Source of the DNA: an uncultured Gemmatimonadales bacterium
GTDB lineage: Bacteria; Gemmatimonadota; Gemmatimonadetes; Gemmatimonadales; GWC2-71-9
Length of the DNA: 64,000 bases
Assembly (NCBI GenBank): GCA_963779755.1
Contig: CAVZZO010000003.1
Location: 544,001-608,000, forward strand
Direction of reading: 5' to 3'
This document shows, one piece after another, positions 35,391 to 47,359 of the stretch. Below the pieces are notes generated by a model, which worked only from the letters and a program-made list of their open reading frames with translations, was not told the DNA's origin and ran no database searches. Each line of letters starts with the position of its first letter. Positions within the stretch are counted from its first letter, which is position 1. The translations under genes and the position numbers were made by a program.

Positions 35391-37079
35391 TCAGTCCACG
35401 ATCTCCAAATCTAACTCGTCGGCGACCGCATCGAGGGCGGGATCGCGGGACCGGAGAGCCCGCAGCCGCTCGGCCCGGGAATCGGCATCGGACATCCGGC
35501 GGTTACGGGGACGGGATCCGGCCTCGGGAGCGGCGCCGCCGGACCCGGTCCGGACCTCCAGGCGGACCTGACCGCGTACCCGGGCCCCCACCAGATCCTC
35601 GACCACCTTGCGCTGCTTGTTCAGATGGTCCGCAACGACCGGATTATCGCCGGGGATCGCGACCGTGAGCACCGGGGGGGCGACCTCGACCGGCTGCGCC
35701 GCCGCCACCGCCTCGCCCAGGAACCCGCTCTCGGCACGGGCGGCGGCGGCAATGTCTGCCCAGATGGCCTGCAGCGCCGACAGCTCAAAGGCAACGGGCG
35801 GCCCGTCTTCAGGAGGACGGGTAGAGGGCCTGGACTCCGGCTCGCCGGAGGGCTCGGCCGGAGGCGCCGCCCTGCGGCCGGCCGCCGGGGCACGCTCCCG
35901 GCGGGCGGGCGGAGGCGCGGGTGCCTGGCTCGGCGCTGCCGGCACGCCGCTCAGCACCTGGCTCAGATCCACCAGCCGGTCCATCATGGCCCAGCGGAGC
36001 AGCAGCGTCTCCACCTGGAGCCGCGGACTGGCACTGCGGCGGATGCCCGCCTCGCTGTCCGCCAGGAGCCGCAGCATGCGGAGGATGTCGCCCGCTTCCA
36101 GCCGGTCTTTCACCTGATCCAGGCGCTGGCGCATCCCCTCAGTCATTTCCTCGGGCTCGGCGCCCAACTGGAGCATGAGCAGGGCGCGCAGCGCATCGCC
36201 CGCTCCGCTCATGAACTCGGCCAGGTCGCCGCCCTGGTCGAGCAGCCTGTCCACCAGGGGGAATACATCCGCCGGCCGGCGGTCGGCCACCAGATCCAGC
36301 AGCTCGCCGTAGATCTCATCGTCCACCAGGCCCAGGAGCGAGCGGACGCCGGCCGCGGTGAGCTTCTCGTCCCCGAAACTCAGGCACTGATCCAGCAGGC
36401 TCAGGGCATCGCGCATACCGCCGTCGGCCCGGCGGGCCAGGAGGGTGAGCGCGTCCTCCTCGGCGGGGATGCCCTCGGCTTTCAGGACTTCACGAATGCG
36501 GTCCTTGATGGCGGCGGGCCCGATGCGGTGAAAATCGAACCGCTGCAGCCGGGACATGACCGGGGCCGCGGTCTGGGCAATCTTCTGCGGCTCGGTGGTG
36601 GCGAAGACGAACACCACGCCCGGCGGCGGCTCTTCCAGGATCTTGAGCAGCGCGTTCCACGCCTCCCGGGTGAGCATGTGGGCTTCGTCAACGATGTACA
36701 CCTTGTGGTGCCCCTCCTGGGAGGCGGCGTACATCGCCCGCTCGCGCAGATCGCGCGCGTCGTCCACGCCGCGGTTGCTGGCGGCGTCGATTTCCACCAC
36801 ATCCAGGTTGGCCGAGCCGGCCCAGATCCGCTCGCAGCTGGGGCACTCGCCGCAGGGCTCCCCCGGCGGGTCGGCCTGCTCGCGGCGCTCGCAGTTCAAG
36901 GCCATGGCGAGAATTCGGGCGGCGGTGGTCTTCCCGACCCCGCGCGGACCGGTCAGAAGATAGCCGTGCCCCACGCGGCCATGAGCGACGGCGCCCCGGA
37001 GCACCGCGGCGACGTGGTCCTGCACCAGGAGCTCGGAGAATTTTTTCGGGCGGTAGCGGCGGGCGAGTGCGATGGCCAT
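35391..37079 (-). CDS. dnaX: DNA polymerase III subunit gamma/tau
   Basis: LARRYRP, GPRGVGKTT, EIDAASNRGVDD, DEAHML, NALLKILEEPP, GGMRDALSLLDQ. Confidence 0.97.
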   Translation of the reverse strand: MAIALARRYRPKKFSELLVQDHVAAVLRGAVAHGRVGHGYLLTGPRGVGKTTAARILAMALNCERREQADPPGEPCGECPSCERIWAGSANLDVVEIDAASNRGVDDARDLRERAMYAASQEGHHKVYIVDEAHMLTREAWNALLKILEEPPPGVVFVFATTEPQKIAQTAAPVMSRLQRFDFHRIGPAAIKDRIREVLKAEGIPAEEDALTLLARRADGGMRDALSLLDQCLSFGDEKLTAAGVRSLLGLVDDEIYGELLDLVADRRPADVFPLVDRLLDQGGDLAEFMSGAGDALRALLMLQLGAEPEEMTEGMRQRLDQVKDRLEAGDILRMLRLLADSEAGIRRSASPRLQVETLLLRWAMMDRLVDLSQVLSGVPAAPSQAPAPPPARRERAPAAGRRAAPPAEPSGEPESRPSTRPPEDGPPVAFELSALQAIWADIAAAARAESGFLGEAVAAAQPVEVAPPVLTVAIPGDNPVVADHLNKQRKVVEDLVGARVRGQVRLEVRTGSGGAAPEAGSRPRNRRMSDADSRAERLRALRSRDPALDAVADELDLEIVD

Positions 37080-37091
37080 GGGGGAATATAA

Positions 37092-37431
37092 GACGGCAGG
37101 ACGGCAGGGCGGCAGGACGGCCCTGAAGGACTTCCTCGCGGCCTCTTCCTTGGATGGCCGCTCGGTCGCAGGACGGCACGTGCTGTCACCCTGAGCGATA
37201 GCGAAGGGGGCGAAGCCGATCGAATGGTTCCGGCGCGACCTAACCCCCTGTCCCCCTTCCCTGGTGGGAAGGGGGGAACGGGGGACATGGAGCTCGCGTG
37301 CTGTCACCCTGAGCGATAGCGAAGGGGGCGAAGCCGATCGAATGGTTCCGGCCGCTTCGCTGCGCTCAGCGTGACGCCGTTCCTCGCCAGGTGCCGGTGA
37401 CGAGCCCGCGCCAGCGGGCGCGGCAATCTCC
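37092..37431. repeat. Cluster of nested REP-like palindromes, including a 56-bp exact direct repeat
   Basis: 37179-37234 equals 37297-37352; GTCACCCTGAGCG pairs with CGCTCAGCGTGAC; CCCCCTTCCC/GGGAAGGGGG hairpin; 37401-37431 is the inverted partner of 44011-44041. Confidence 0.85.
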
Positions 37432-37447
37432 CTGGGTGCGCCCCCTG

Positions 37448-39532
37448 CTACTTCACGACATTCAGGGGCGTGGTGCGCTCGAGTATAGTTCCGTCCGGCG
37501 CCTCGAGGGTAACGTTGAGGGTGTATTTCCCGGGACGGAGATCCTTGAGCAACAGGGCACGAACGAACGCCTGGCGGGTACCGGTGACCGTCTCGGTGAA
37601 GCTGAGCGTGATGCCCTGCCCTTTCCCTTTCGCCGGGGTGATGGCGACCCGCTGGCGGTACGCTGCCCCGGGGGTGAGGCCCGCCGCCTCGTAGTAGAGG
37701 ATGGCCCGGGAGCCGGTGGGAAACGCGGCGAGGGGGTTGAGCGGCAATGGCCCGGCGGGCGATGCCCAGACCAGGCCCGAGCCGCTGCGGCCCAGGATGG
37801 GTTCGCCCAGCGAGAGGCGCCCGGTCGCCGGAATGACGATGCTATCCCGACCCACAATCACCCCCCGGCCGCCGGTCACCTCGGGCCGGGCATCCGCCGG
37901 CCGGACGCCGCTGGTGTCCGGCTCCTCGATCGTCACCCGGACGTTGACCAGGCCGGGCGGCACCGGCAGCTCCAGCAGGCCCGTCAGGTGGTCCTTCCCT
38001 TCCAGCGGCCGGGGAGTCATAAACGTCCGCAGCGTATCCAGGTCTACCCGGCGTCCCCCGTCGGGAGTAGCCGCCACGAGGTGGAAGCGGATGGGATAGC
38101 TGAATCCTGCGATGGAATCTCCCGCTGTGCTCGTCAGGCCATCCGGAGGGATGGCGAAGACGAGCAGCAGGCGACCGCCAACCGTATCCGGTCTGGCGTG
38201 CAATGCGTAGAGCTCCACCGTCGGTTTCAGGTCCCGCCGATAGAACGGCGCATAGTAATCTGTCGTGAGCGCTTCCTCTTTCATGCGCTTCAGCTCGGCA
38301 CCTTGCAGCTGGACCAGCCGCGGGGTCGGCGGGAAGCAGTACCACGGGTCGTAGTCGCAGAGAGTTCCGGGAAGCGCTGCCACGGCGGGGACGACCCTGA
38401 GGTACAGGTTGCCCCTGCTGCGGCGGTAGACCCACCAAGTGCCGACGCGATAGTCGGGCGGGCCATGACGGATGTAAACCGGCCCCCTCGCATCGAACTG
38501 GTCCGTCCCCGGGAGACGATGCTGCGTGAGGAGCGAGCTCCCCCCGCCGAATCGCCGAACATCCAACCCAGCGCCATCGCCTCATCAATGGAATCGGGTG
38601 CGCCCGTCGGTACGTCGGCCGTCAGGGTCTCAATACTCGGCGTGCCGGGAGGCCGCCGGACGACGGCCCTGAAATTCTGGAACGCATATTCGTAGCGCCG
38701 GAAATGTTCCATCAGCCGCGCGCCGGCCGGCCGGCCCACGCCGGCGTCCCGCTTCGACCAGAAGCCCTCGATCCAGCCGCCCAGGGAATCGGGCGGCAGG
38801 CTATCGAACCGTGCCAGCTCTGCTGGCGTAGCCAGCAGCGCCAGATGTGCGCGGTAGGCGTTGCGTCCCTCGACACTGACACCGGCATGGGTCGCGCCGA
38901 GTGCATAGGCGGCCGCTCCTTCCGCTGTTTCGGCGCGCGCATAATATTCCCGCGCCAGCTCCAGCTCCGCCACGGCGCTATCTCCGCCGGCCGCCAGGTA
39001 GCGCTGCAACAGAACGACCGTGGAGTCGCGCACATCCGTCTCCCGCTCCAGGCGGGCGCGGGACAACAGCACCGGCGGCAAACGATCGACCGGCGTGGCG
39101 GCAGTGCGCCGCAGGGCGTCGCGGGCCTGGGTGTACGGCACCCAGGCGGGCATCAGGTCCAGCGCGTCGGACAGGTGGAGCGCGGCAGCGGCAGAAGCCG
39201 AATCCAGCTTCAGCAGCCGCATGAAGCTTTCCGCCGCCCCGCGGGCATAACTGGAGCCGATCGGCTGCAGCGGCCCCGGCTTGGCGATGGCCTTGAGGCG
39301 CGCGAGCTCGAGACGCGCGAGCCCGATGCCGAGCCAGGCCTGCACGCTGTCGGAGCGGTCGCTCGACCACGACGCGCGACCAGCAGTCGAGCTCGCGGCG
39401 GAGCGAATCGGCGGCGGAACGGGGCGCACGGCGGCGTGCAGGGGGGATGCAGGAGCCGGGTGACGCCTGGCCGTGGGGGGGAAGAGTCAGAAAGGCCGCG
39501 AGAAGGAGAACTGGGCCGGCGCGCGCAAACAT
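37448..39532 (-). pseudogene. GWxTD-domain secreted protein paralog 1, split by two compensating frameshifts
   Basis: Signal peptide ORF (from 39532), TPR-like/FWSKRD..EHFRR ORF (38290-39429) and DARGPVYIRHGPP + C-terminal Ig-like ORF (37448-38566) are colinear with paralog 2; shifts near 39360 and at a G6 run (38540-38545). Confidence 0.8.
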
Positions 39533-39632: not shown

Positions 39633-41786
39633 TCACCGCCCCTTCGTCACCAACAACTCCTGTTCGCGGGCGATGGTCGGCCCCTCCGGCAGCCGGATCT
39701 CCGCTCGCAGGCGGTACAGGCCCGGCCTGGTCCGGTCCAGCTTGATCGACCGGCGCACCACCAGATTCGTCTCGCTGAGCCGTTCGGTGGTGCTCACCTT
39801 GATGGCCTCCCGCGGCTCGGCTTCCGGTATCAGCGAGAGGGTGACATCCACCGCGGCATCCGGAGAGAGGCCGAGGGCCTCGAGATAGATCTCCACCGTT
39901 CCGCCGGCGGGATAGCTGTTGAGCGGGCTCAGCGGGAAGGGGCCAGCGGCGCTGGGCCAGCGCAGTTCGCTGGCCACGGAACCCAGGAGCAGCGCGCTGA
40001 GAGTGGGGCCATCGGTGGAAGGCGGCGGCACGTCCACGCCCGCCTGGAGGGTGAAGGACCCGGCCTGGGGATCCGTGCCCGTCTCCAGCGATCGGACCTC
40101 GTACCGGCCCGCGGAGACGGGCACCTCGACATAGCCCACCAGCCACTGATCCGGCCGCAGCTTGCGGGAGCCATCGTAGAGGAACGTGGTGTCGAGGGTG
40201 GCCGGTGCTCCACGTTCCGGCAAGGCGGCCAGCCGCAGGCGCAGCGGAATCGCATCGCCCGCGCGCGCGTGAATCTGTCCCAGGCCACCGGGGGGAAGGG
40301 CGAAGGCCACCAGCAACCGGCCCGGGTCGGCCAGCCCGTAGGCGCGCGTCACCGCCTGGAGGTCGCGCGCGAAATGATGCGGATCGGCATCGGTCGTCAC
40401 CGCAAGGTGAATGCGGTCCACGTCCTTTTCCCGCACTGATTCCTGCAGCCGTTCCCGGTGAAGCGGGCGCCTCTCCTCGATCCACTTCGCATAGGTGGAA
40501 TCGTATTGGGCCATCTGGACAGCATTGCCGTCAATCCAGATATCACCCGGCACGATCTTGAAATCACTGGAGGTACAAAAGCGATACTTGCTGATCATCA
40601 GCGTAAAGAAAGGACGAAAGTGTACGACGAGACCATGGTCAGGGCCGTCGTCGTACAGCCAGGAATAAATCGGGCAATCCAGCACACGGTCCATGGGACC
40701 CTCTCGTACTTGTCCCGGGACACCACCCGGCAGGGCTCCCCCATCCATCCCGGATAGCAGGATTCGGCTTGGCGCTCCATGCCGGATGTAAATCACCCCG
40801 CGATCGTCCACCTGATCCTGATCGCTGTGGAACGGCATGACCTTGTTGTAGTCCCGCTTCTTTTTGCGCAGGGGAAACTCCGCCAGGGCAAACCGGATCC
40901 GCTCCTCGTGCTCGGCCAGCCGGTCGGGTGGCGTGCGGAAATCGACAGCCGCGCGGCGGCCCCAGAAGGCGGCGCCCCATTGCCGGCGGCTTACCGAGTC
41001 CAGCGCCATCACGGAATCCAGGGCGTCGGCTTCCGGATCGGTGAGGAGCCAGCCAAGGTCGCGCCGGTACCCGGCGAGGGCGGAGTCACTCCGCATGGCA
41101 CCGAAGCCGTCCAGCCAGGCTTGGTAGCCGTCGGCCAGCCGGCCCAGCATGAGCAGGGCACGGCCTCGCGTGAGCAGGGCGAGCGAGGTGTCGCCGCCCA
41201 CGGCGAGCGCGTGGTCCGCCCGGGCGAGCGCGCTGTCCGCGTGGTGCCATTCGAGTTCGCGGCCGGCCCGGAGCAGCAGCAGGGTGGGATCGTCTGTGGC
41301 GGCCGCCGCACGCTCGAGCAGTATGGCGTCGGCCTCGTCGTCCAGCTTTGCGAGGCGGCGTAGCTCGGCGCTGGCGAGGAGCCTGGCGGCGGGAACGTAC
41401 GCCGAATCGCGGCGGAGTGCTTCGCGCAGCGCCGCCACCGCGCCCTGGGCATAGGACATCCCGATCACCAGGCCCGGCCCGGCGCGCGCGATGGCGCCCT
41501 CCTTGGAGAGATCGAACCTGGCCCGGCCGGCCAGGTACCACGCCTCCACCGGCGGGTCGCGCCGGAAGAGCAGCGTGCTCAGCCGGTCCAGGCCGGCGCT
41601 CAGCTGCCCCTTGTCCCCACAGGCCTCGCCGGCCGAGATGAGCGCGCGGGCGGCATCGATGGCCTCGAGCGTATCCGTGGCCCGAACCTCCGGACACACC
41701 GGAGCCGAGGCCGCCGGTCCCTGAGCGTGAAGCGAAGCGGCGAGTATGGTGGCAAGAAGGAACGGGAGAGCGCTGCGACAGCCCAT
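39633..41786 (-). CDS. GWxTD-domain secreted protein paralog 2 (intact)
   Basis: Signal peptide ending SLHAQ, helical TPR-like region, FWGRR...EHEERI, DDRGVIYIRHGAP, W.Y, C-terminal PL..Y..G..Y.E..GL and PG.Y.L Ig-like domain. Confidence 0.85.
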   Translation of the reverse strand: MGCRSALPFLLATILAASLHAQGPAASAPVCPEVRATDTLEAIDAARALISAGEACGDKGQLSAGLDRLSTLLFRRDPPVEAWYLAGRARFDLSKEGAIARAGPGLVIGMSYAQGAVAALREALRRDSAYVPAARLLASAELRRLAKLDDEADAILLERAAAATDDPTLLLLRAGRELEWHHADSALARADHALAVGGDTSLALLTRGRALLMLGRLADGYQAWLDGFGAMRSDSALAGYRRDLGWLLTDPEADALDSVMALDSVSRRQWGAAFWGRRAAVDFRTPPDRLAEHEERIRFALAEFPLRKKKRDYNKVMPFHSDQDQVDDRGVIYIRHGAPSRILLSGMDGGALPGGVPGQVREGPMDRVLDCPIYSWLYDDGPDHGLVVHFRPFFTLMISKYRFCTSSDFKIVPGDIWIDGNAVQMAQYDSTYAKWIEERRPLHRERLQESVREKDVDRIHLAVTTDADPHHFARDLQAVTRAYGLADPGRLLVAFALPPGGLGQIHARAGDAIPLRLRLAALPERGAPATLDTTFLYDGSRKLRPDQWLVGYVEVPVSAGRYEVRSLETGTDPQAGSFTLQAGVDVPPPSTDGPTLSALLLGSVASELRWPSAAGPFPLSPLNSYPAGGTVEIYLEALGLSPDAAVDVTLSLIPEAEPREAIKVSTTERLSETNLVVRRSIKLDRTRPGLYRLRAEIRLPEGPTIAREQELLVTKGR

Positions 41787-41818
41787 GCAGCGAATATGGC
41801 AAGGCGGGCCGGAAAGTG

Positions 41819-41996
41819 GTAAGGCGTGAGGCGGGAAGGCGGGGGCACGCCCGCTGGCGGGGGGTCGCAATGGCGGGAGATTCCAAGCGCATTCCGGGGG
41901 GATTGCTTCGGCGGCTGGCGCCGCCTCGCAATGACAGCATGTCCTGCCGTCCTGCCGTCCTGCCGTCCTGCCGTCCTGCCGTCCTGCCGTCCTGCC
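41819..41996. repeat. REP-like palindromes plus (GTCCTGCC)x7 octamer array
   Basis: CACGCCCGCTGGCG..TCGCAATG (41846-41872) resembles 44020-44046; GATTGC..CTCGCAATGAC; seven GTCCTGCC copies at 41941-41996. Confidence 0.88.
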
Positions 41997-42003
41997 GCCC
42001 GAA

Positions 42004-42053
42004 AAAAGTGCCCCAGGCTCTCCGAAGCGACACCGGACATCGCTTAGCGCTGC
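42004..42053 (-). repeat. Displaced duplicate of the SRP RNA 3' half (att-like direct repeat)
   Basis: 49/50 nt identical to 44090-44139. Confidence 0.92.
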
Positions 42054-42121
42054 CAAATCCGGCCAATTCTGGCGGATCCTTGCGCTTGCAGGACCCTTCC
42101 CGGAAAAGCAAGTTGGGAATC

Positions 42122-43865
42122 ATGACTGGATTTCCCCCTCAACCCACGGAAACGGCCCGGCATCTGCCCAGATGGGTGGGCTGCGGGCTGTAACGCCCTT
42201 ACCGTGCTGCTCGGGGCGTCGTCGCTTCTTGAGGGACAATCCCCGCAGCAGCGGGAGTCTCTGCTGCGCTACCAGGATTCCCTGCAGGAGATGCCTCCCG
42301 CACTGCTCCGCCGGGAGATGGACACGCGCCGGGCACAGGCCGACAGCGAAGCAACCGCAATGGCCCACCTTCGGCTGGGGCTGGCGGCGCTGTCGGTCGG
42401 GCAGAGGGTGGACCACTACCAGCTCGACCGCGCCCGGGGTGCCTTCGAGCAGGCGGCCAGACTCGAACCTGACTGGCCGTGGCCACGGTATGGCATTGGG
42501 CTCGCTCGCCGGGATGACATCTCACGCGGCGACGGCCGCGTGGCATTCCTCCGGCGTTTCTGGGGCAATCGCGACGCCTGGGCGCTGCGTGAACCGGGCA
42601 CGCGACTGCTCGATCACTACAGCAGGCTTCAATACGCCCGGCGGCATTTCGCCCTCGAGGTGAACCGCCGCTTCTACCGGTTCGTGGATACGTACCGGTC
42701 CGGGAGTACGGAACTGGATGACCGGGGCATCGTCTATGTCCGGCAGGGGCCGCCGGAGAAGCGGATCACTGTACCCATCTTCGGCTTCTTTCCCAATGAA
42801 ACCTGGCGATACAAGCGAGCGGACGGCGACCTTCTGTTGCACTTCAGTAGCGGGGGTGGGCAGTCAGGTGGGCACCAGATTGGAGGCGATCTGGGAGATT
42901 ATCACCTCATCCCCAGTCTGCTGAACGCCGGTACACCAGGAGGCGCCACCCCGGCGGCGGGCGGCGATAGCGTGATGCTTTTTGTGTCCCGAACGCCCGT
43001 GACCGATCTCTATGCAAAGTACATGACCTGGGGCCCGGAAGGCCGGAGTCGGGCTATACGAGAAGAGCAGCGAATCGTCGCTCTGAGTACCACCCTCGCC
43101 ACGCAGACCGACGCCGACGAGCTGACCTTTGATTCTGCATTGACGGTGGTCTCAGAGCTTATCGCCCTCGGCACCAACGGTAATCTGACGATGGTTCATG
43201 TGCTGGCCGGCATCCCGGTGAACGTCGGTACCGGTTCGGATCAGCGCCTGACCACGATCCGCACCAGCCTCGGGGTCTTTGACTCTTCCGGAGATCCTGT
43301 GGCATCGCTGGATACCGCCGTCATCCTCCGGCTCACCGGCCCGGTTGCGCCCGGAAGCTGGGCATTTACTCGCGCCCAAGTCGCCGTATCTCCCGGCCAC
43401 TGGACGTATCGGCTTGCTATCGAGCAAGGTGGTGACCGAGGCGTGGTGTTACCCAGAGCCACCATCGCGGTCCCCAACCTCGACGGATCCCGGATCGCCA
43501 TGAGCGACCTGGTGATCGCTCCTTTGCCAGGGAGCTGGCCCTGGCCGCTGGCATCGGGGGATACCGTTTATGCCAGCCCGCTTCACACCTACGGTCGTGG
43601 AGGGCGCATCAGCCTGTACTACGAGGTGTATGGTCTGAAAACTGGTGACTACTCAACCAGGATTTCCGTCTACGAGCGTAAGGGCGCGGAGTTGGGACGA
43701 CGCCGGTTGTCCCTGTCCTTCCACTCGACGGCCAGGGCCACTGTCGCACGCGAACAGCGGACGATTGACCTCCGCGACCTGCAACCTGGCCAGTACTGGT
43801 TGGAGGTTCGCGCCGGTGAAGCCGTACGCAAAAAGGCGATGACGATCGTCGACACGTCGAAGTAG
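42122..43865 (+). pseudogene. GWxTD-domain protein paralog 3; signal peptide probably frameshifted and TPR region shortened; long ORF 42204-43865
   Basis: FWGNRD...DHYSRL, DDRGIVYVRQGPP, NETWRY, YYEVYGL, PGQYWLEV; the upstream ATG 42122 frame stops at TAA 42191-42193 one base out of frame with ALTVLLGA. Confidence 0.7.
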
Positions 43866-43909
43866 TGCTTGGCACCTCACGGCCGGTAGCCGCTCAGCGG
43901 GACACTCGG

Positions 43910-44050
43910 GTGAGGCGTGAGGTGGGGAGGCGGGGAGGCGGGAGGCAGGGCAAGCAGCGACGGGAACGCATTCCCAACGACGGAAGCAGTGTGCCTGGGT
44001 GGGTACCTCAGGAGATTGCCACGCCCGCTGGCGCGGGCTCGCAATGACGG
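43910..44050. repeat. GTGAGGC/GGGAGGC repeats plus REP-like GGAGATTGCC...CTCGCAATGAC palindrome
   Basis: 44011-44041 matches the reverse complement of 37401-37431 at 30/31 nt. Confidence 0.82.
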
Positions 44051-44093
44051 CCATTCTCTGGCCGCCTTGCACCGCCTTGCCGCCAAAAGAAAA

Positions 44094-44197
44094 GTGCCCC
44101 AGGCTCCCCGAAGCGACACCGGACATCGCTTAGCGCTGCTACCGGCGAGGTCCTGACGCGGTTCGCGCGCCAGCGCCCTTCGGACCTGGGGCATCTC
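44094..44197 (-). ncRNA. ffs: Signal recognition particle RNA (small bacterial 4.5S type)
   Basis: Minus strand: GAUGCCCCAGG...GCGAACCGCGUCAGGACCUCGCCGGUAGCAGCGCUAAGCG...CCUGGGGCAC, then a U-tract; conserved GAAC..GUCAGG..AGCAGC..UAAG core; same strand and upstream of dnaX; TAACTT -10 upstream. Confidence 0.88.
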
Positions 44198-44205
44198 AAA
44201 GTTAA

Positions 44206-44278
44206 GGGGGAAAGGGAGAAATGGGAATCGGGAAAGGTCCGTTTTCCCCTTCCCCCCTTCCCGTTCCCCCTTTTCCCG
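44206..44278. repeat. Heptamer inverted-repeat hairpin
   Basis: GGGGGAAAGGGAGAAATGGGAATCGGGAA ... TTCCCCTTCCCCCCTTCCCGTTCCCC. Confidence 0.75.
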
Positions 44279-44283
44279 CCCCC

Positions 44284-44324
44284 AAAAAACTGGAGGCACC
44301 GAGACTTTCGCCCCGATGCCCCCT
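44284..44324 (-). terminator. Rho-independent terminator on the minus strand
   Basis: GGGGCAUCGGGG-CGAAA-GUCUCGGUGCCUCC followed by UUUUUU. Confidence 0.65.
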
Positions 44325-44571: not shown

Positions 44572-47286
44572 TTATCGCCCCGTCCCCATCAGGATCGCAT
44601 TGCTCACCAGCCTCGCCGTCCCTCGCCAGAACGCCCGGAAGAGCGGGTCTTCGGCGAAGAGCACCACGTGCCCGCGCCCCACGTTCTCCACCGCCGCCCA
44701 GACCGATTTCCGCAAATATTTCTCGGTGTTCCCGGGCCACGCAAATCCGGCGAGCCGCAGGCTGTCGCCGGTAAAGACGACCGGATTCTCCCCCTTTTGG
44801 GAGGGGGCGAGCGAGACCCCCTGGAGGAAGACCGGCAGCGCCGCCCGGCCATACCCGTAGGCCAGCCAGTGCAGCGTGTCCAGCGTGGCGCGGAAGACGC
44901 TCCCCTGGATGTCCTCCGGCTCCTTGTGATGCGACGCCTCCGGCGAGGCCAGCGGCACCCCCGCGACCACTGTATCGGCCGAGTCGGCTGAGGGACCCTT
45001 TCCCTTTTCTCCCTTTCCCTCTTCCCTTTCGTCCGAGCCCACCGGCTTGGCGCTGGTCAGATCCACTTCCTTCCGGCTCAGCAGTGACACCGCCCCGCCG
45101 GCCGCGATCACCAGCCCCCCGCCATTCACCCAGTCCTTCAGGCGCCGAGCCCCGCCCTCTCCCAGTTGGCGCCAGAGGCCGCCCCCGTATCCGCCCGGCA
45201 GGATCAGGACGTTGTAGTCGTCCAGCCGCATCCGCCCCAGGCTGCTCAGCCGGACAGGCACCACCGGCAGGTCCAGCTCGCGCTCCAGATAGTACCAGAA
45301 GTCCCCGAAGGCGGTGGCGCTGATCCCGTCGCCCGCCGCGAGCAGCACACGTGCGGGATGCAGCGCCTCGACCATCTCGCTGCCCACGCCGTACTGCCCG
45401 CTGTCGGGAAAGCCCGACTGGATGGCGGTCACTTCGACCCGGTCTTCAGCCGCCAGCTGCGCGATCCGCTGGTGCAACGAATCGGGGTTCCGCGCCACCC
45501 GCAGGATGAAGGTGCCGCGGGGCCAGCTGGCGCTGTCGGCCCGGAAGGGCTGGGTGGCGCTCCCCAGCGAGAAGCCTTCGCCCAGGAGGTGCAGCGCCAG
45601 ACGGGCGGCATGGTCGCGGTCATCGGGAAAGACATACGCCACCCGCGCCCGCCCGCCGGACACTCCTCCGGCCTCGGCGCTGTCGGCCCCGGCGGGCACG
45701 CCCGCCACCGGCGCGGTCTCGCCGGTCCACCAGGCGTCCAGTCCGAACGCCAGCGGCAGCGACCAGGCGGTGATGTCATAGAATTCGTAGCCCTCGTGCC
45801 CGGCATCGGGGCCGCGCGCCCCGTTGCGGGCATAGCGGGCCAGCTGCGCCTGGACGAAGCTGGAATCAATGCGCGGATCGGGCTCCAGCAGGGCCGCCGC
45901 CAGGCGGGCCTGCGGCTGCGCCAGGTCCACTATCCACGCGCCGGCCGGAACGACGCGGGCGGAGGCATTGCCGCCCAGATAGGAATGTGCCCGCGCCAGC
46001 CGCAGCGGCGCCCGGGTCCGCTGCACCTCGATACCTTGGCGCTGGAGGAGCTCGGCCAGCTGGCGGGCCCGGTCGGGGTGGTCGCCGGCGGTCCACACCA
46101 CCCGCCGGAGCGGGGCGCGCGCCGCATCGGCCATACCTCCCACGCGGAAATCGTAGAAGTCGCGCAGCAGCCGCTCGCGCGAGGCCGCCGCCGTCGCCAG
46201 CGTCGCCAGCGAGGCCACCTGGTGGTGCGCAATCCCGTCGCGGAAGCTGGTGACAGTGCCGTCGTCCTTGCGCAGGCGCAGCTCGGGCCCGCCGTCGCTC
46301 TCGAAGGTCATCCCCACCGCGCCGTTCAGCACGGGCCAGCTGTCCCAGTATCCGGCGTAGAACAGGTCGAACTCGTCGCGCACGTAGTAGAGCCAGCCGA
46401 AGGCATCGAACGCCGCCGCGTTGCCCCGGCCGAAGCGCTCCAGCCAGTCGCGAATGGTGCCGGGCACGTTGGCGTTGATGGGGCGGGCGTCGGGCGGGAA
46501 GAAGTACTGCGCGGTGGTGCTGTGCAGATCGGCGAAGGCCTGCGGGTGCCAGCGCAGGATGGCCCCGGCCAGGGCCCGCGTCTCCGGCTGCGACTGGGCG
46601 ATGAGATCGCGGTTCATGTCGAACCGGTAGTGATTGTAGCGGCCCACCACGTCCCAGGGCTCGTTGTGCTCCAGCGAGCCCGGCTCGTCGCTGCCCACCG
46701 CCACCGAGTTGGACCAGGCGGCGAACCGCTCGTGTCCGTCCGGGTTCTGTGACGGGTTGATGATCGTCACCACGTTCCGCAGGATCTCCAGCGTGGCGGG
46801 CTCGTCGGAGGCCAGCAGCTGGTAGGTGGTCGCGAGCGCGGCCTCGAAGCCCGCGGGCTCGTCGCCGTGGATGGAGTGGGAGAGCATCACCACGGCGGGA
46901 TCCCGGGCGGCGATGGCCGCGGCCCGTTCGGCGCTGGTACGGCGGGGGTCGGCCAGCGCGGCAAGGTCGGCGCGGATGCTGTCGATGCGGGCGAGGTTCC
47001 CGGGCGCGGAGATGATGATGAGCCGCATCACCCGTCCCTCGGGCGTCCGGCCGATCACTTCGGTGCGCGAGCGCTCGGGCGCCGCCTGCACCATGCGCTC
47101 CAGCGCGGCCTGCTGTTCGGCGTACATCGTCTGCCGCGATCCCAGCGGATGGCCCAGCAGCGAGTCGGGCCGCGGCACGGCGGCACGATAAGGCCCGCGG
47201 GCGTAGAAGTCGAAAGGCTGCTGCGCCTGGAGGGGCGCCGCAACCGCCAGGGATGCCAGCAGAAAACCGGCCCGGATGAGAGGCAT
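44572..47286 (-). CDS. Secreted M14 family zinc carboxypeptidase with C-terminal GATase-like domain
   Basis: HGDE zinc motif, NPDG.ER, RYNHY.FDMNRD, DLH, TFES; signal peptide. Confidence 0.92.
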   Translation of the reverse strand: MPLIRAGFLLASLAVAAPLQAQQPFDFYARGPYRAAVPRPDSLLGHPLGSRQTMYAEQQAALERMVQAAPERSRTEVIGRTPEGRVMRLIIISAPGNLARIDSIRADLAALADPRRTSAERAAAIAARDPAVVMLSHSIHGDEPAGFEAALATTYQLLASDEPATLEILRNVVTIINPSQNPDGHERFAAWSNSVAVGSDEPGSLEHNEPWDVVGRYNHYRFDMNRDLIAQSQPETRALAGAILRWHPQAFADLHSTTAQYFFPPDARPINANVPGTIRDWLERFGRGNAAAFDAFGWLYYVRDEFDLFYAGYWDSWPVLNGAVGMTFESDGGPELRLRKDDGTVTSFRDGIAHHQVASLATLATAAASRERLLRDFYDFRVGGMADAARAPLRRVVWTAGDHPDRARQLAELLQRQGIEVQRTRAPLRLARAHSYLGGNASARVVPAGAWIVDLAQPQARLAAALLEPDPRIDSSFVQAQLARYARNGARGPDAGHEGYEFYDITAWSLPLAFGLDAWWTGETAPVAGVPAGADSAEAGGVSGGRARVAYVFPDDRDHAARLALHLLGEGFSLGSATQPFRADSASWPRGTFILRVARNPDSLHQRIAQLAAEDRVEVTAIQSGFPDSGQYGVGSEMVEALHPARVLLAAGDGISATAFGDFWYYLERELDLPVVPVRLSSLGRMRLDDYNVLILPGGYGGGLWRQLGEGGARRLKDWVNGGGLVIAAGGAVSLLSRKEVDLTSAKPVGSDEREEGKGEKGKGPSADSADTVVAGVPLASPEASHHKEPEDIQGSVFRATLDTLHWLAYGYGRAALPVFLQGVSLAPSQKGENPVVFTGDSLRLAGFAWPGNTEKYLRKSVWAAVENVGRGHVVLFAEDPLFRAFWRGTARLVSNAILMGTGR

Positions 47287-47359
47287 CGGATGGTCGAAGG
47301 TCAAAGGTCGAAGTCGATCCTGCCGTCCTGCCGCCCTGCCGTCTTGCCGCCCTGCCGCC

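Follow-up and report, generated by a model that had tools for sequence, protein, structure and literature searches.

We analysed a stretch of 64,000 nucleotides (the window) from an uncultured Gemmatimonadales bacterium of the GTDB lineage GWC2-71-9 (assembly GCA_963779755.1). The window corresponds to C3:544001-608000, where C3 stands for contig CAVZZO010000003.1. Its minus strand carries an intact ffs gene (44093-44192) for the small, 4.5S-type RNA of the signal recognition particle (SRP). A displaced fragment of this gene, comprising its 3′ half, lies at 42004-42053 on the same strand with no 5′ half adjoining it. Based on codon-position GC content and family searches, the order of features along the minus strand is PGI, a BrkB-like gene, an M14 peptidase gene, ffs, a repeat module, the opposite-strand gene GWxTD2, a 68-nt spacer, the ffs fragment, a second repeat module, the GWxTD-like paralogs 1 and 3, an interspersed-repeat mosaic, dnaX, and recR. 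A preliminary description of this locus had taken the two ffs copies for the ends of a 2-kb islet that used ffs as an attachment site (att).

The ffs gene and its repeated 3′ half

Rfam searches found a single SRP RNA gene in the window. This gene matches RF00169 (bacterial small SRP RNA) over the full model (positions 1-97 of 97) with 45 bits, above the gathering score of 40, and therefore belongs to this family. Its fold (z = -3.29 vs 200 shuffles) and its identity of 92-100% to the ffs genes of genomes from the same family are consistent with this assignment. Within the intact gene, positions 44090-44139 (minus strand) make up the 3′ half, starting 7 nt beyond the helix-8 apical loop and extending into the T-run. 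The same 50 nt recur as a direct repeat at 42004-42053 with 49 of 50 positions identical (98%) and a spacing of 2,086 nt. A pattern search that tolerated up to three mismatches detected only these two copies in the 4,234,673 bases of the genome (four contigs), and the reversed control pattern gave no match across the whole genome at the same tolerance. The recurrence, its orientation, and the layout of an intact gene with a displaced 3′ fragment therefore stand as first described.

The preliminary description had also placed the breakpoint at the helix-8 loop, and the Rfam alignment confirms this position by showing a 5-nt apical loop (UCGCC). Perfect identity of the two copies begins 7 nt 3′ of this loop at GCAGCG, and if a 3-nt indel is allowed, the similarity extends back into the last three loop bases. 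At the end of the gene, identity stops 4 nt into the T-run behind ffs. BLAST lengthens the pair to 68 nt at 91% identity (41987-42053 and 44072-44139). The single mismatch is a G to A change in the fragment (sense strand). Since the intact gene and the 13 relatives compared all carry G at this position, A is the derived base. Two features expected of an island in an RNA gene are thus present at this locus, namely a regenerated target accompanied by a displaced direct fragment (42004-42053), and a block of identity that runs from a stem-loop to the 3′ end of the gene, in this case from the helix-8 loop to the T-run.

The 70 nt upstream of the fragment do not resemble the 5′ half of ffs (local score 12, a value reached by 1390 of 2000 shuffles). 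This result excludes a diverged 5′ half next to the fragment, which is therefore a true half gene. A terminator-like hairpin followed by a T-run is preserved in both copies on the minus strand (44114-44096 and 42028-42010). By itself, the fragment does not match RF00169 at E values up to 1, and together with its context it folds no better than shuffled sequences (z = +0.47). The idea that the fragment forms a structured RNA with its upstream context consequently finds no support; the corresponding fragments in genus g76, described below, give z values of -0.29 and -0.50.

Partial ffs copies and the ffs-dnaX junction in related genomes

A family-wide search returned ffs matches at E ≤ 1e-5 in 364 of 401 genomes, including the present one. 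Two candidates per genome were scored in this search, and the 10 other genomes with two matches were searched again. True partial copies emerged in only two of them (G142 and G220, both of genus g76). In two genomes (G083 and G187), two diverged copies, each of full or nearly full length, lie on different contigs. In the other six (G274, G309, G321, G337, G377, and G412), the second match either lies within about 40 nt of a contig end or is a whole-gene duplicate on a short contig; in G309, two contigs overlap by 85 nt, which accounts for the apparent second copy. Assemblies from short reads are often broken in or near ffs in this family, and overlapping contig ends can mimic a partial second copy.

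These six assemblies, which break in ffs, lend some weight to the concern that the hairpin-shaped gene gave a false join or an extra copy in the present genome too. This genome is assembled in four contigs, and the locus lies 586 kb into a contig of 1.82 Mb. Moreover, a single base distinguishes the two copies, both of which have long unique flanks and intact neighbouring genes. We therefore find an assembly artefact, the outcome that the preliminary description had named as fatal to its own reading, hardly credible.

In both g76 genomes, a 3′ piece of ffs (L086:5436-5505 in G142 and L087:5394-5467 in G220) is located 117 nt behind the intact gene, and the interval contains two hairpins and no gene. 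The piece starts with GCCGGTAGCAGCG at the same alignment column as the fragment in the window (GCCGG, the last loop bases). Its middle is replaced by a GC-rich hairpin, and its end consists of the last 24-33 nt of ffs and the T-run. The two species share 99.1% identity in ffs, 70.7% in the 117-nt interval, 50% between the fragment and the next open reading frame (ORF), and 72.5% in this ORF. The ffs-derived ends of the fragment are identical at 37 of 37 positions in surrounding non-coding DNA of 50-71% identity, and the middle hairpin differs by two compensatory pair changes. A second genus thus has a half-gene copy that starts in the helix-8 loop, and there it predates a species split. The fragment has remained unchanged through conversion from ffs or through selection. 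It may be a conserved element, such as a terminator or the leader of a TonB_C-like gene, or it may have been kept by gene conversion. The preliminary description had suggested looking for other cargo with the same duplication. None was found, the g76 fragments being the only others and gene-free.

The neighbourhood of ffs was compared in 57 loci from genomes of the same family (13 + 4 + 40), all from other genera. One of them (L124 from G301) is flagged as unpublished; without it, each count is one lower on both sides. The N-terminal motif of dnaX lies 15-181 nt behind the ffs 3′ end in 44 of the 57 loci, and tblastn located dnaX next to ffs in two more (L043 and L091), which brings the total to 46. 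The M14 gene stands beside ffs in relatives, too. In the present genome, 7,013 nt separate the 3′ end of ffs from the ATG of dnaX. The tight ffs-dnaX pair is thus the common state, and the additional 7.0 kb in this genome are a lineage-specific insert. The empty state for which the preliminary description had asked is seen in relatives in a broad sense, as dnaX directly follows ffs in 46/57 loci; these loci, from other genera, differ from the present genome by the whole 7.0 kb rather than by the 2-kb unit and so do not amount to a precise empty site. A genome containing only the inner block of the insert was not found.

Eleven of the 57 loci are altered. Three loci from genus g76 have 1,124, 1,127, and 1,859 nt between ffs and dnaX, and these intervals contain a small TonB_C-like gene in G142 and G220 and an opposite-strand ABC1 kinase gene in G081. 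The other eight all come from genus g13 (L039, L098, L099, L100, L103, L107, L116, and L117). In these, ffs is inverted relative to dnaX, and 2-7 kb of ordinary genes (SSF transporter, APH-family kinase, NTP transferase, GH123) separate ffs from the M14 gene. The 5′ end of ffs in L039 is only about 30 nt from the dnaX start. Two further g13 genomes (G362 and G413) retain the standard order. No GWxTD-like gene occurs between ffs and dnaX in any of the 57 loci, and no integrase was detected in nine frames scanned from five altered loci. Taken with the present genome, these 11 loci show that the ffs-dnaX junction was broken several times within the family.

It is conceivable that the helix-8 loop is a recurrent, structure-defined recombination point in Gemmatimonadales, at which 3′-half modules or single genes would be inserted without a cis-encoded integrase, either by a recombinase acting in trans or by hairpin- or transcript-directed repair. 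The fragment could then have been kept as a functional element, perhaps a spare terminator or an insulator that separates the strongly transcribed ffs from the genes before dnaX. We consider this broader proposal distinctly improbable.

Genes and repeats of the 7.0-kb insert

The 2-kb islet between the two ffs copies forms the outer part of the 7,013-nt insert, and the fragment lies in its middle. Three GWxTD-like paralogs occupy the insert, two of them with homopolymer frameshifts. The one inside the islet, GWxTD2 (42122-43865, plus strand), has an open frame at 42126-43865 with a GTG at 42204 as the first in-frame start. A likely ATG at 42122 is out of frame by one base around a C5 run (42133-42137). 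The product encoded by 42204-43865 scores 24 bits against TIGR04514, below the NCBIfam cut-off of 28, and has no match in Pfam. The preliminary description had listed one oppositely oriented GWxTD paralog and REP-like repeats (REP: repetitive extragenic palindrome) as the contents of the islet. This inventory holds, except that the gene resembles TIGR04514 only below the cut-off and is not a member by this measure.

Homology of GWxTD2 to proteins of other organisms is nonetheless strong. In a collection of 5.8 billion proteins, the closest homologue (P0002, 743 aa) is 74% identical, the next 63%, and all others are near 40%, with E values down to 1e-96 for this last class. Many of these homologues are labelled as GWxTD domain-containing proteins by their sources (JGI, NCBI), and some are placed in Gemmatimonadales. 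GWxTD2 is thus a divergent relative of GWxTD proteins rather than a scored member of the family. Relative to its nearest homologues, it contains an in-frame gap of about 165 aa, and it looks like a secreted-protein gene in decay. The best paralog in its own genome shares 33% identity. The GC content of GWxTD2 is about 64%, compared to 68.5% for the genome; the other GWxTD paralogs are low as well, and GC and codon-position composition as a test for foreign origin rests on a crude set of ORFs. A scan of metagenome contigs revealed no relative of the GWxTD2 protein and no match to the exact 29-nt junction between fragment and flank, and a literature search under the name "GWxTD" returned nothing. 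Between the fragment and the out-of-frame ATG of GWxTD2 lies a unique spacer of 68 nt (42054-42121); the sole BLAST match of 42054-42203 in the genome is this sequence itself.

Each ffs copy is followed by a module of repeats. The flank behind the intact gene (43866-44089) consists of a T-run, two GGCAAGGC-type 8-mers, a REP-like hairpin (44011-44051), and CCTCCCCG-type 8-mers. The flank behind the fragment (41787-42003) consists of a T-run, seven copies of the 8-mer GGCAGGAC (41941-42000, where the plus strand reads GTCCTGCC), and REP-like hairpins at 41898-41938 and 41846-41876. The two flanks are colinear over a looser likeness that continues for about 130 nt past the ffs end and includes the T-run, GGCGGCA(A/G)G-type 8-mers (7 at the fragment vs 2 at ffs), and a REP-like hairpin of the form GTCATTGCGAG-stem-GCCA-stem-GCAATC with compensating differences in the stem. 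Mean column identity of this alignment is 77% if the ffs part is counted in. The flanks alone are about 70% alike with indels, compared to 98% in the ffs part.

These modules are typical of the genome. The REP core occurs 39 times in the genome and twice in 885,551 nt of relatives' loci, and runs of at least three GGCAGGAC units occur 139 times (overlapping matches counted) and not once, respectively, in the same two sets. Over 31 nt, the REP-like hairpin of the islet matches a copy at 37401-37431 with 97% identity; copies at C3:1.43-1.45 Mb share 93% with it and are as close to it as the REP behind the fragment is. DNA inside the islet therefore carries native repeats. Since such modules are common throughout the genome, the likeness of the flanks is no proof of a duplication that extended past the ffs half. 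A tandem duplication of the whole 2,086-nt unit can be eliminated, because the sequence beyond the fragment is unrelated apart from the repeat modules. Arrays of GTCCTGCC/GGCAGGAC and of the related CCTCCCCG and GGCAAGGC occupy many intergenic regions of this genome, and relatives have their own 8-mer variants next to ffs.

The composition of gene and flank bears on an origin without any site-specific enzyme. DNA of a relative, comprising an ffs 3′ half, its downstream flank, and a convergent GWxTD gene, could have recombined through the near-invariant ffs, with illegitimate joining of the other end at the tip of the hairpin; alternatively, a circle could have entered by way of RecA. Because ffs is 92-100% conserved across genera of the family and intergenic DNA diverges rapidly, this route would produce an ffs part of 98% identity beside a flank of about 70%. 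It would also suit the lower GC content of GWxTD2, its closest homologues in other organisms (74% and 63%, vs 33% for the best own paralog), and the presence of GWxTD-like genes in other genera at differing sites that are empty or otherwise occupied here. However, the islet flank holds the REP family of the present genome (97% identity to a copy 6.6 kb away), a donor-like layout with ffs convergent to a GWxTD gene occurs in none of the 57 related loci, and the loop breakpoint shared with g76 would not be predicted. On balance, we judge an acquisition of this sort unlikely.

The inner part of the insert contains the other two paralogs. Paralog 1 (39633-41786, minus strand) encodes 717 aa with a signal peptide-like N-terminus (MGCRSALPFLLATILAASLHAQG) and shows a coding-type GC content at the three codon positions (0.72/0.54/0.79). 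The frame that holds it (39633-42056) gave no match to TIGR04514 in NCBIfam. Paralogs 1 and 2 share 25% identity, which rules out that GWxTD2 arose from paralog 1 by a recent local duplication. Paralog 3 (37448-39429, minus strand) is split into two frames (38290-39429 and 37448-38566), and the change of frame falls on a G7 run near 38539-38545. Three paralogs at C3:826-837 kb, each in a single frame, share 64-66% identity with both halves. The frameshifts at the G7 and C5 runs may reflect real decay, slipped-strand switching, or sequencing error. The GWxTD-like family as a whole comprises about a dozen loci on C3, and its location differs from genus to genus. Two sites on contig C1 of the present genome, an empty 105-nt spacer (C1:2124597-2124702) and a site with an unrelated gene for 813 aa (C1:1283500-1286044), carry GWxTD-like genes in other genera (G005 and G023; G012 and G015).

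Directly upstream of dnaX lies the interspersed-repeat mosaic (37080-37447), which is 85-93% identical to repeat arrays at C3:1.430-1.447 Mb. Dense mosaics with periods of 81, 117, 170, and 207 nt also stand between ordinary genes at C3:1,426,000-1,448,000 and are composed of CCCCCTTCCC...GGGAAGGGGG-type hairpins and a GTCACCCTGAGCGATAGCGAAGGGG unit. The dnaX gene itself (35391-37079, minus strand) starts with MAIALARRYRP at 37079 and matches the Pfam families DNA_pol3_delta2, DNAX_ATPase_lid, and DNA_pol3_gamma3. On the other side of ffs, the conserved upstream neighbour is the M14 carboxypeptidase gene (44572-47304, minus strand; Pfam Peptidase_M14). A long CT/GA-rich inverted repeat (44198-44290) is situated between the M14 terminator (44323-44292) and the ffs promoter. 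Its best score against Rfam microRNA families is at chance level (31.7 bits against a gathering score of 97).

Origin of the repeat and comparison with known systems

As controls from the same genome, all 60 tRNA and tmRNA genes were scanned for partial copies, and three cases were found. First, the 5′ half of a tRNA-Arg gene (C3:41607-41680) is repeated at C3:31763-31802 by a 40-nt copy of 100% identity that ends in the anticodon loop. The 9.8 kb bracketed by this pair (locus L134) encode a tyrosine integrase (PF00589, 37.7 bits), an HTH_3 regulator, and an AAA_25/MarR_2 protein. This unit is a genuine integrative element, and it is unusual in that the 5′ half rather than the 3′ half is duplicated. 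Second, the 3′-terminal 28 nt of a tRNA-Met gene (C3:410597-410730, L136) recur 36 nt downstream, where the flank is colinear but diverged. Genes for an integrase (122 bits) and an IS630-type DDE_3 transposase follow 3-5 kb beyond this repeat. Third, a tRNA-Pro gene (C1:1614415-1614647, L135) is preceded by a tandem pseudo-copy that has a GC-rich insert of 65 nt in the anticodon loop and has lost 4 nt of the T-loop. We therefore rejected the 40-nt repeat of this tRNA-Pro gene as a second integrase-free att scar, since it belongs to a full tandem pseudo-tRNA. The tRNA-Arg element indicates that integrases do make loop-bounded half-gene repeats of the size of the ffs repeat in this genome. Short-range duplications of RNA-gene ends without an integrase occur in it as well.

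Our tentative preference is to read the two 3′ halves of ffs as a decayed attL/attR footprint, left by an element whose attB was the helix-8 loop of this gene. In this scenario, Campbell-type integration into ffs would have occurred by crossing over in or next to the apical loop, most likely through a tyrosine recombinase. The incoming DNA would have brought its own ffs 3′ half, which now completes the working gene, and the original 3′ half would have been displaced by 2,086 nt downstream. The integrase and most of the element body would later have been lost, leaving between the copies the module of REP and 8-mer repeats and one shortened GWxTD-like gene. The element may have landed beside an older, unmarked insertion of the two further paralogs, which would explain why ffs and dnaX are 7.0 kb apart. 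The recombinase, a circular intermediate, and this order of events are what we infer from the geometry of the locus. The structure would be inert today, the only foreseeable movement being a RecA-type deletion between the 50-nt repeats that leaves ffs intact.

This explanation is preferred because the geometry fits that of islands in RNA genes, with an intact gene, a displaced direct 3′ fragment, and identity from a hairpin loop to the end of the transcript. The loop breakpoint found at the same alignment column in both g76 species and the tRNA-Arg control add weight. The empty state in 46 of the 57 related loci, the derived base in the fragment, as expected of a copy without function, the proven role of ffs as an attB in another bacterium (phage phiEf11; PMC12540744), and the lower GC content of the gene between the copies point in the same direction.

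Several observations count against such a footprint. Among 19 candidate frames at 34.4-52.8 kb, 11 of which were also scanned with NCBIfam, Pfam identified no integrase, excisionase, transposase, or phage or plasmid gene. The DNA bracketed by the repeat thus lacks the integrase gene of a typical island, its sole gene being the GWxTD-like one, and the islet is integrase-free as initially reported. The genome encodes five PF00589 proteins, each at least 175 kb from the locus or on another contig, three of them being non-Xer integrases (C3:40-41.6 kb, C3:405 kb, and C1:691 kb), so the search for tyrosine integrases beside ffs fragments that the preliminary description had recommended found all of them elsewhere; none of the 57 related loci has an ffs fragment next to an integrase either. 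A third or attP-like ffs copy is absent from the genome. No ffs remnant was detected anywhere in the 7 kb, and a third degenerate piece can be dismissed. The older block of 4.9 kb lacks any fragment at its dnaX end, where the best local score of 15 is reached by 82% of random genomic windows; this leaves tandem accretion at a single att site unsupported. The flanks are colinear and built of genome-typical repeats, which points to native DNA or long residence, and the cargo stems from a chromosomal paralog family. In g76, the copies are only 117 nt apart, a spacing common to two species. The other breaks of the ffs-dnaX junction (G081 and g13) carry ordinary genes with neither fragment nor integrase. 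Finally, low GC content is not peculiar to GWxTD2. The minimal cassette mobilised in trans that had originally been proposed finds no support, since the genome contains no other ffs-like att copy and hence no resident element with a matching attP. Given the native paralog-family cargo and the genome's own repeats, an old, domesticated, or local event fits better than a live cassette.

Such a local event could have been the duplication of a module from the ffs loop to the terminator without any recombinase. If the tip of the long ffs hairpin broke or induced a template switch, or if the 3′ half of the transcript was copied, a second copy could have been placed at a short distance downstream, with GWxTD2 inserted between the copies later, or with the 50-nt piece dropped into an existing spacer between the divergent genes GWxTD2 and GWxTD1 (paralog 1). 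The short-range pair in g76 with similar hairpins behind each copy resembles the product of such a process, as do the end repeat of tRNA-Met and the tandem pseudo-tRNA-Pro. Identity stops within the U-tract, where the RNA ends, both in the present genome and in G220. The native repeats in the flanks, an ffs-dnaX junction that behaves as a rearrangement hot spot without mobile genes (11/57 altered), and the absence of an integrase from the locus are also consistent with this process. On the other hand, a second event or a 2-kb jump would be needed for the gene between the copies, and there is no ready reason why copying should stop at the gene end. Identity of 98% in ffs beside about 70% in the flanks would require gene conversion or independent repeat insertions, and no such mechanism for bacterial SRP RNA genes was found in the literature searched. 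We regard this duplication as the main alternative to the footprint, a possible though rather doubtful origin of the repeat.

If the integration footprint that we prefer is real, an SRP RNA gene from a little-studied environmental phylum would join the short list of non-tRNA RNA genes with integration-type scars. The junction of ffs and dnaX is tight in most of the family and has repeatedly been a place where genes were gained or rearranged. For annotation, the locus is a warning that half an SRP RNA gene can persist as a pseudo-feature. Its value for the study of mobile elements is limited as long as no recombinase is attached to the footprint.

Integration within tRNA and tmRNA genes is reportedly divided into sublocation classes by Williams (2002). 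Type I-F3b elements, which are CRISPR-associated transposons (CAST), insert next to ffs and duplicate a short stretch of the target. According to PMC4383910, integrase islands in RNA genes are recognised by an intact gene with a displaced fragment in direct orientation. Like the tRNA and tmRNA islands of the Islander type described there, the ffs locus contains a regenerated RNA gene, a direct partial copy, and a block of identity from a loop to the gene end. The ffs repeat measures 50 nt, compared to 40 nt for the tRNA-Arg island of the same genome and 44 nt for a Pyrococcus example quoted in PMC9897764. Unlike those islands, the locus has no mobility gene, spans 2 kb only, has native-looking cargo and flanks, and targets an SRP RNA gene. 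PMC9897764 further describes tRNA fragments left by the integration of mobile elements. In these quoted cases, as at ffs, a partial, non-functional RNA-gene copy persists, but they bracket 9-23 kb of viral or island DNA instead of 2 kb with one chromosomal-type gene.

SRP RNA had initially been regarded as a much less commonly described target than tRNA or tmRNA. It does remain on a short list, but is less exotic than assumed, judging from the relevant sections of two reports (PMC12540744 and PMC11406308). According to the first (Sci Rep 2025), the attB of phage phiEf11 lies inside ffs of Enterococcus faecalis with a 27-nt core, the integrase gene is 74 nt from attP, and integration does not rebuild the final 17 nt of ffs, which gives the lysogen an altered 4.5S RNA (PMC12540744). 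This phage shares with our locus the use of the SRP RNA gene itself as attachment site; in our case, ffs is restored to full length, an integrase or phage is absent, and the host belongs to another phylum. According to the second, guide RNAs of type I-F3b CRISPR-associated Tn7-like transposons recognise ffs as a chromosomal att site (PMC11406308). Here too, ffs marks a safe and conserved insertion point beside an essential gene. In contrast to these transposons, no Tns or Cas genes were found in the window, where Pfam and NCBIfam searches at 34.4-52.8 kb revealed neither TnsABC-type (Tn7-like or CAST) transposition genes nor Cas genes; a 50-nt duplication of part of a gene is also not what transposition would be expected to leave. 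In Escherichia coli, a megablast search with the K-12 ffs against 5,426 complete genomes located the gene at a single place in each of 5,425 and, at this sensitivity, detected no partial second copy. With the recombinase gene that defines an island absent, the ffs locus is most suitably classified as a footprint, which extends a known kind to a new phylum. What takes it beyond the ordinary is the identical loop breakpoint in two genera, together with the strictly conserved fragment in g76.

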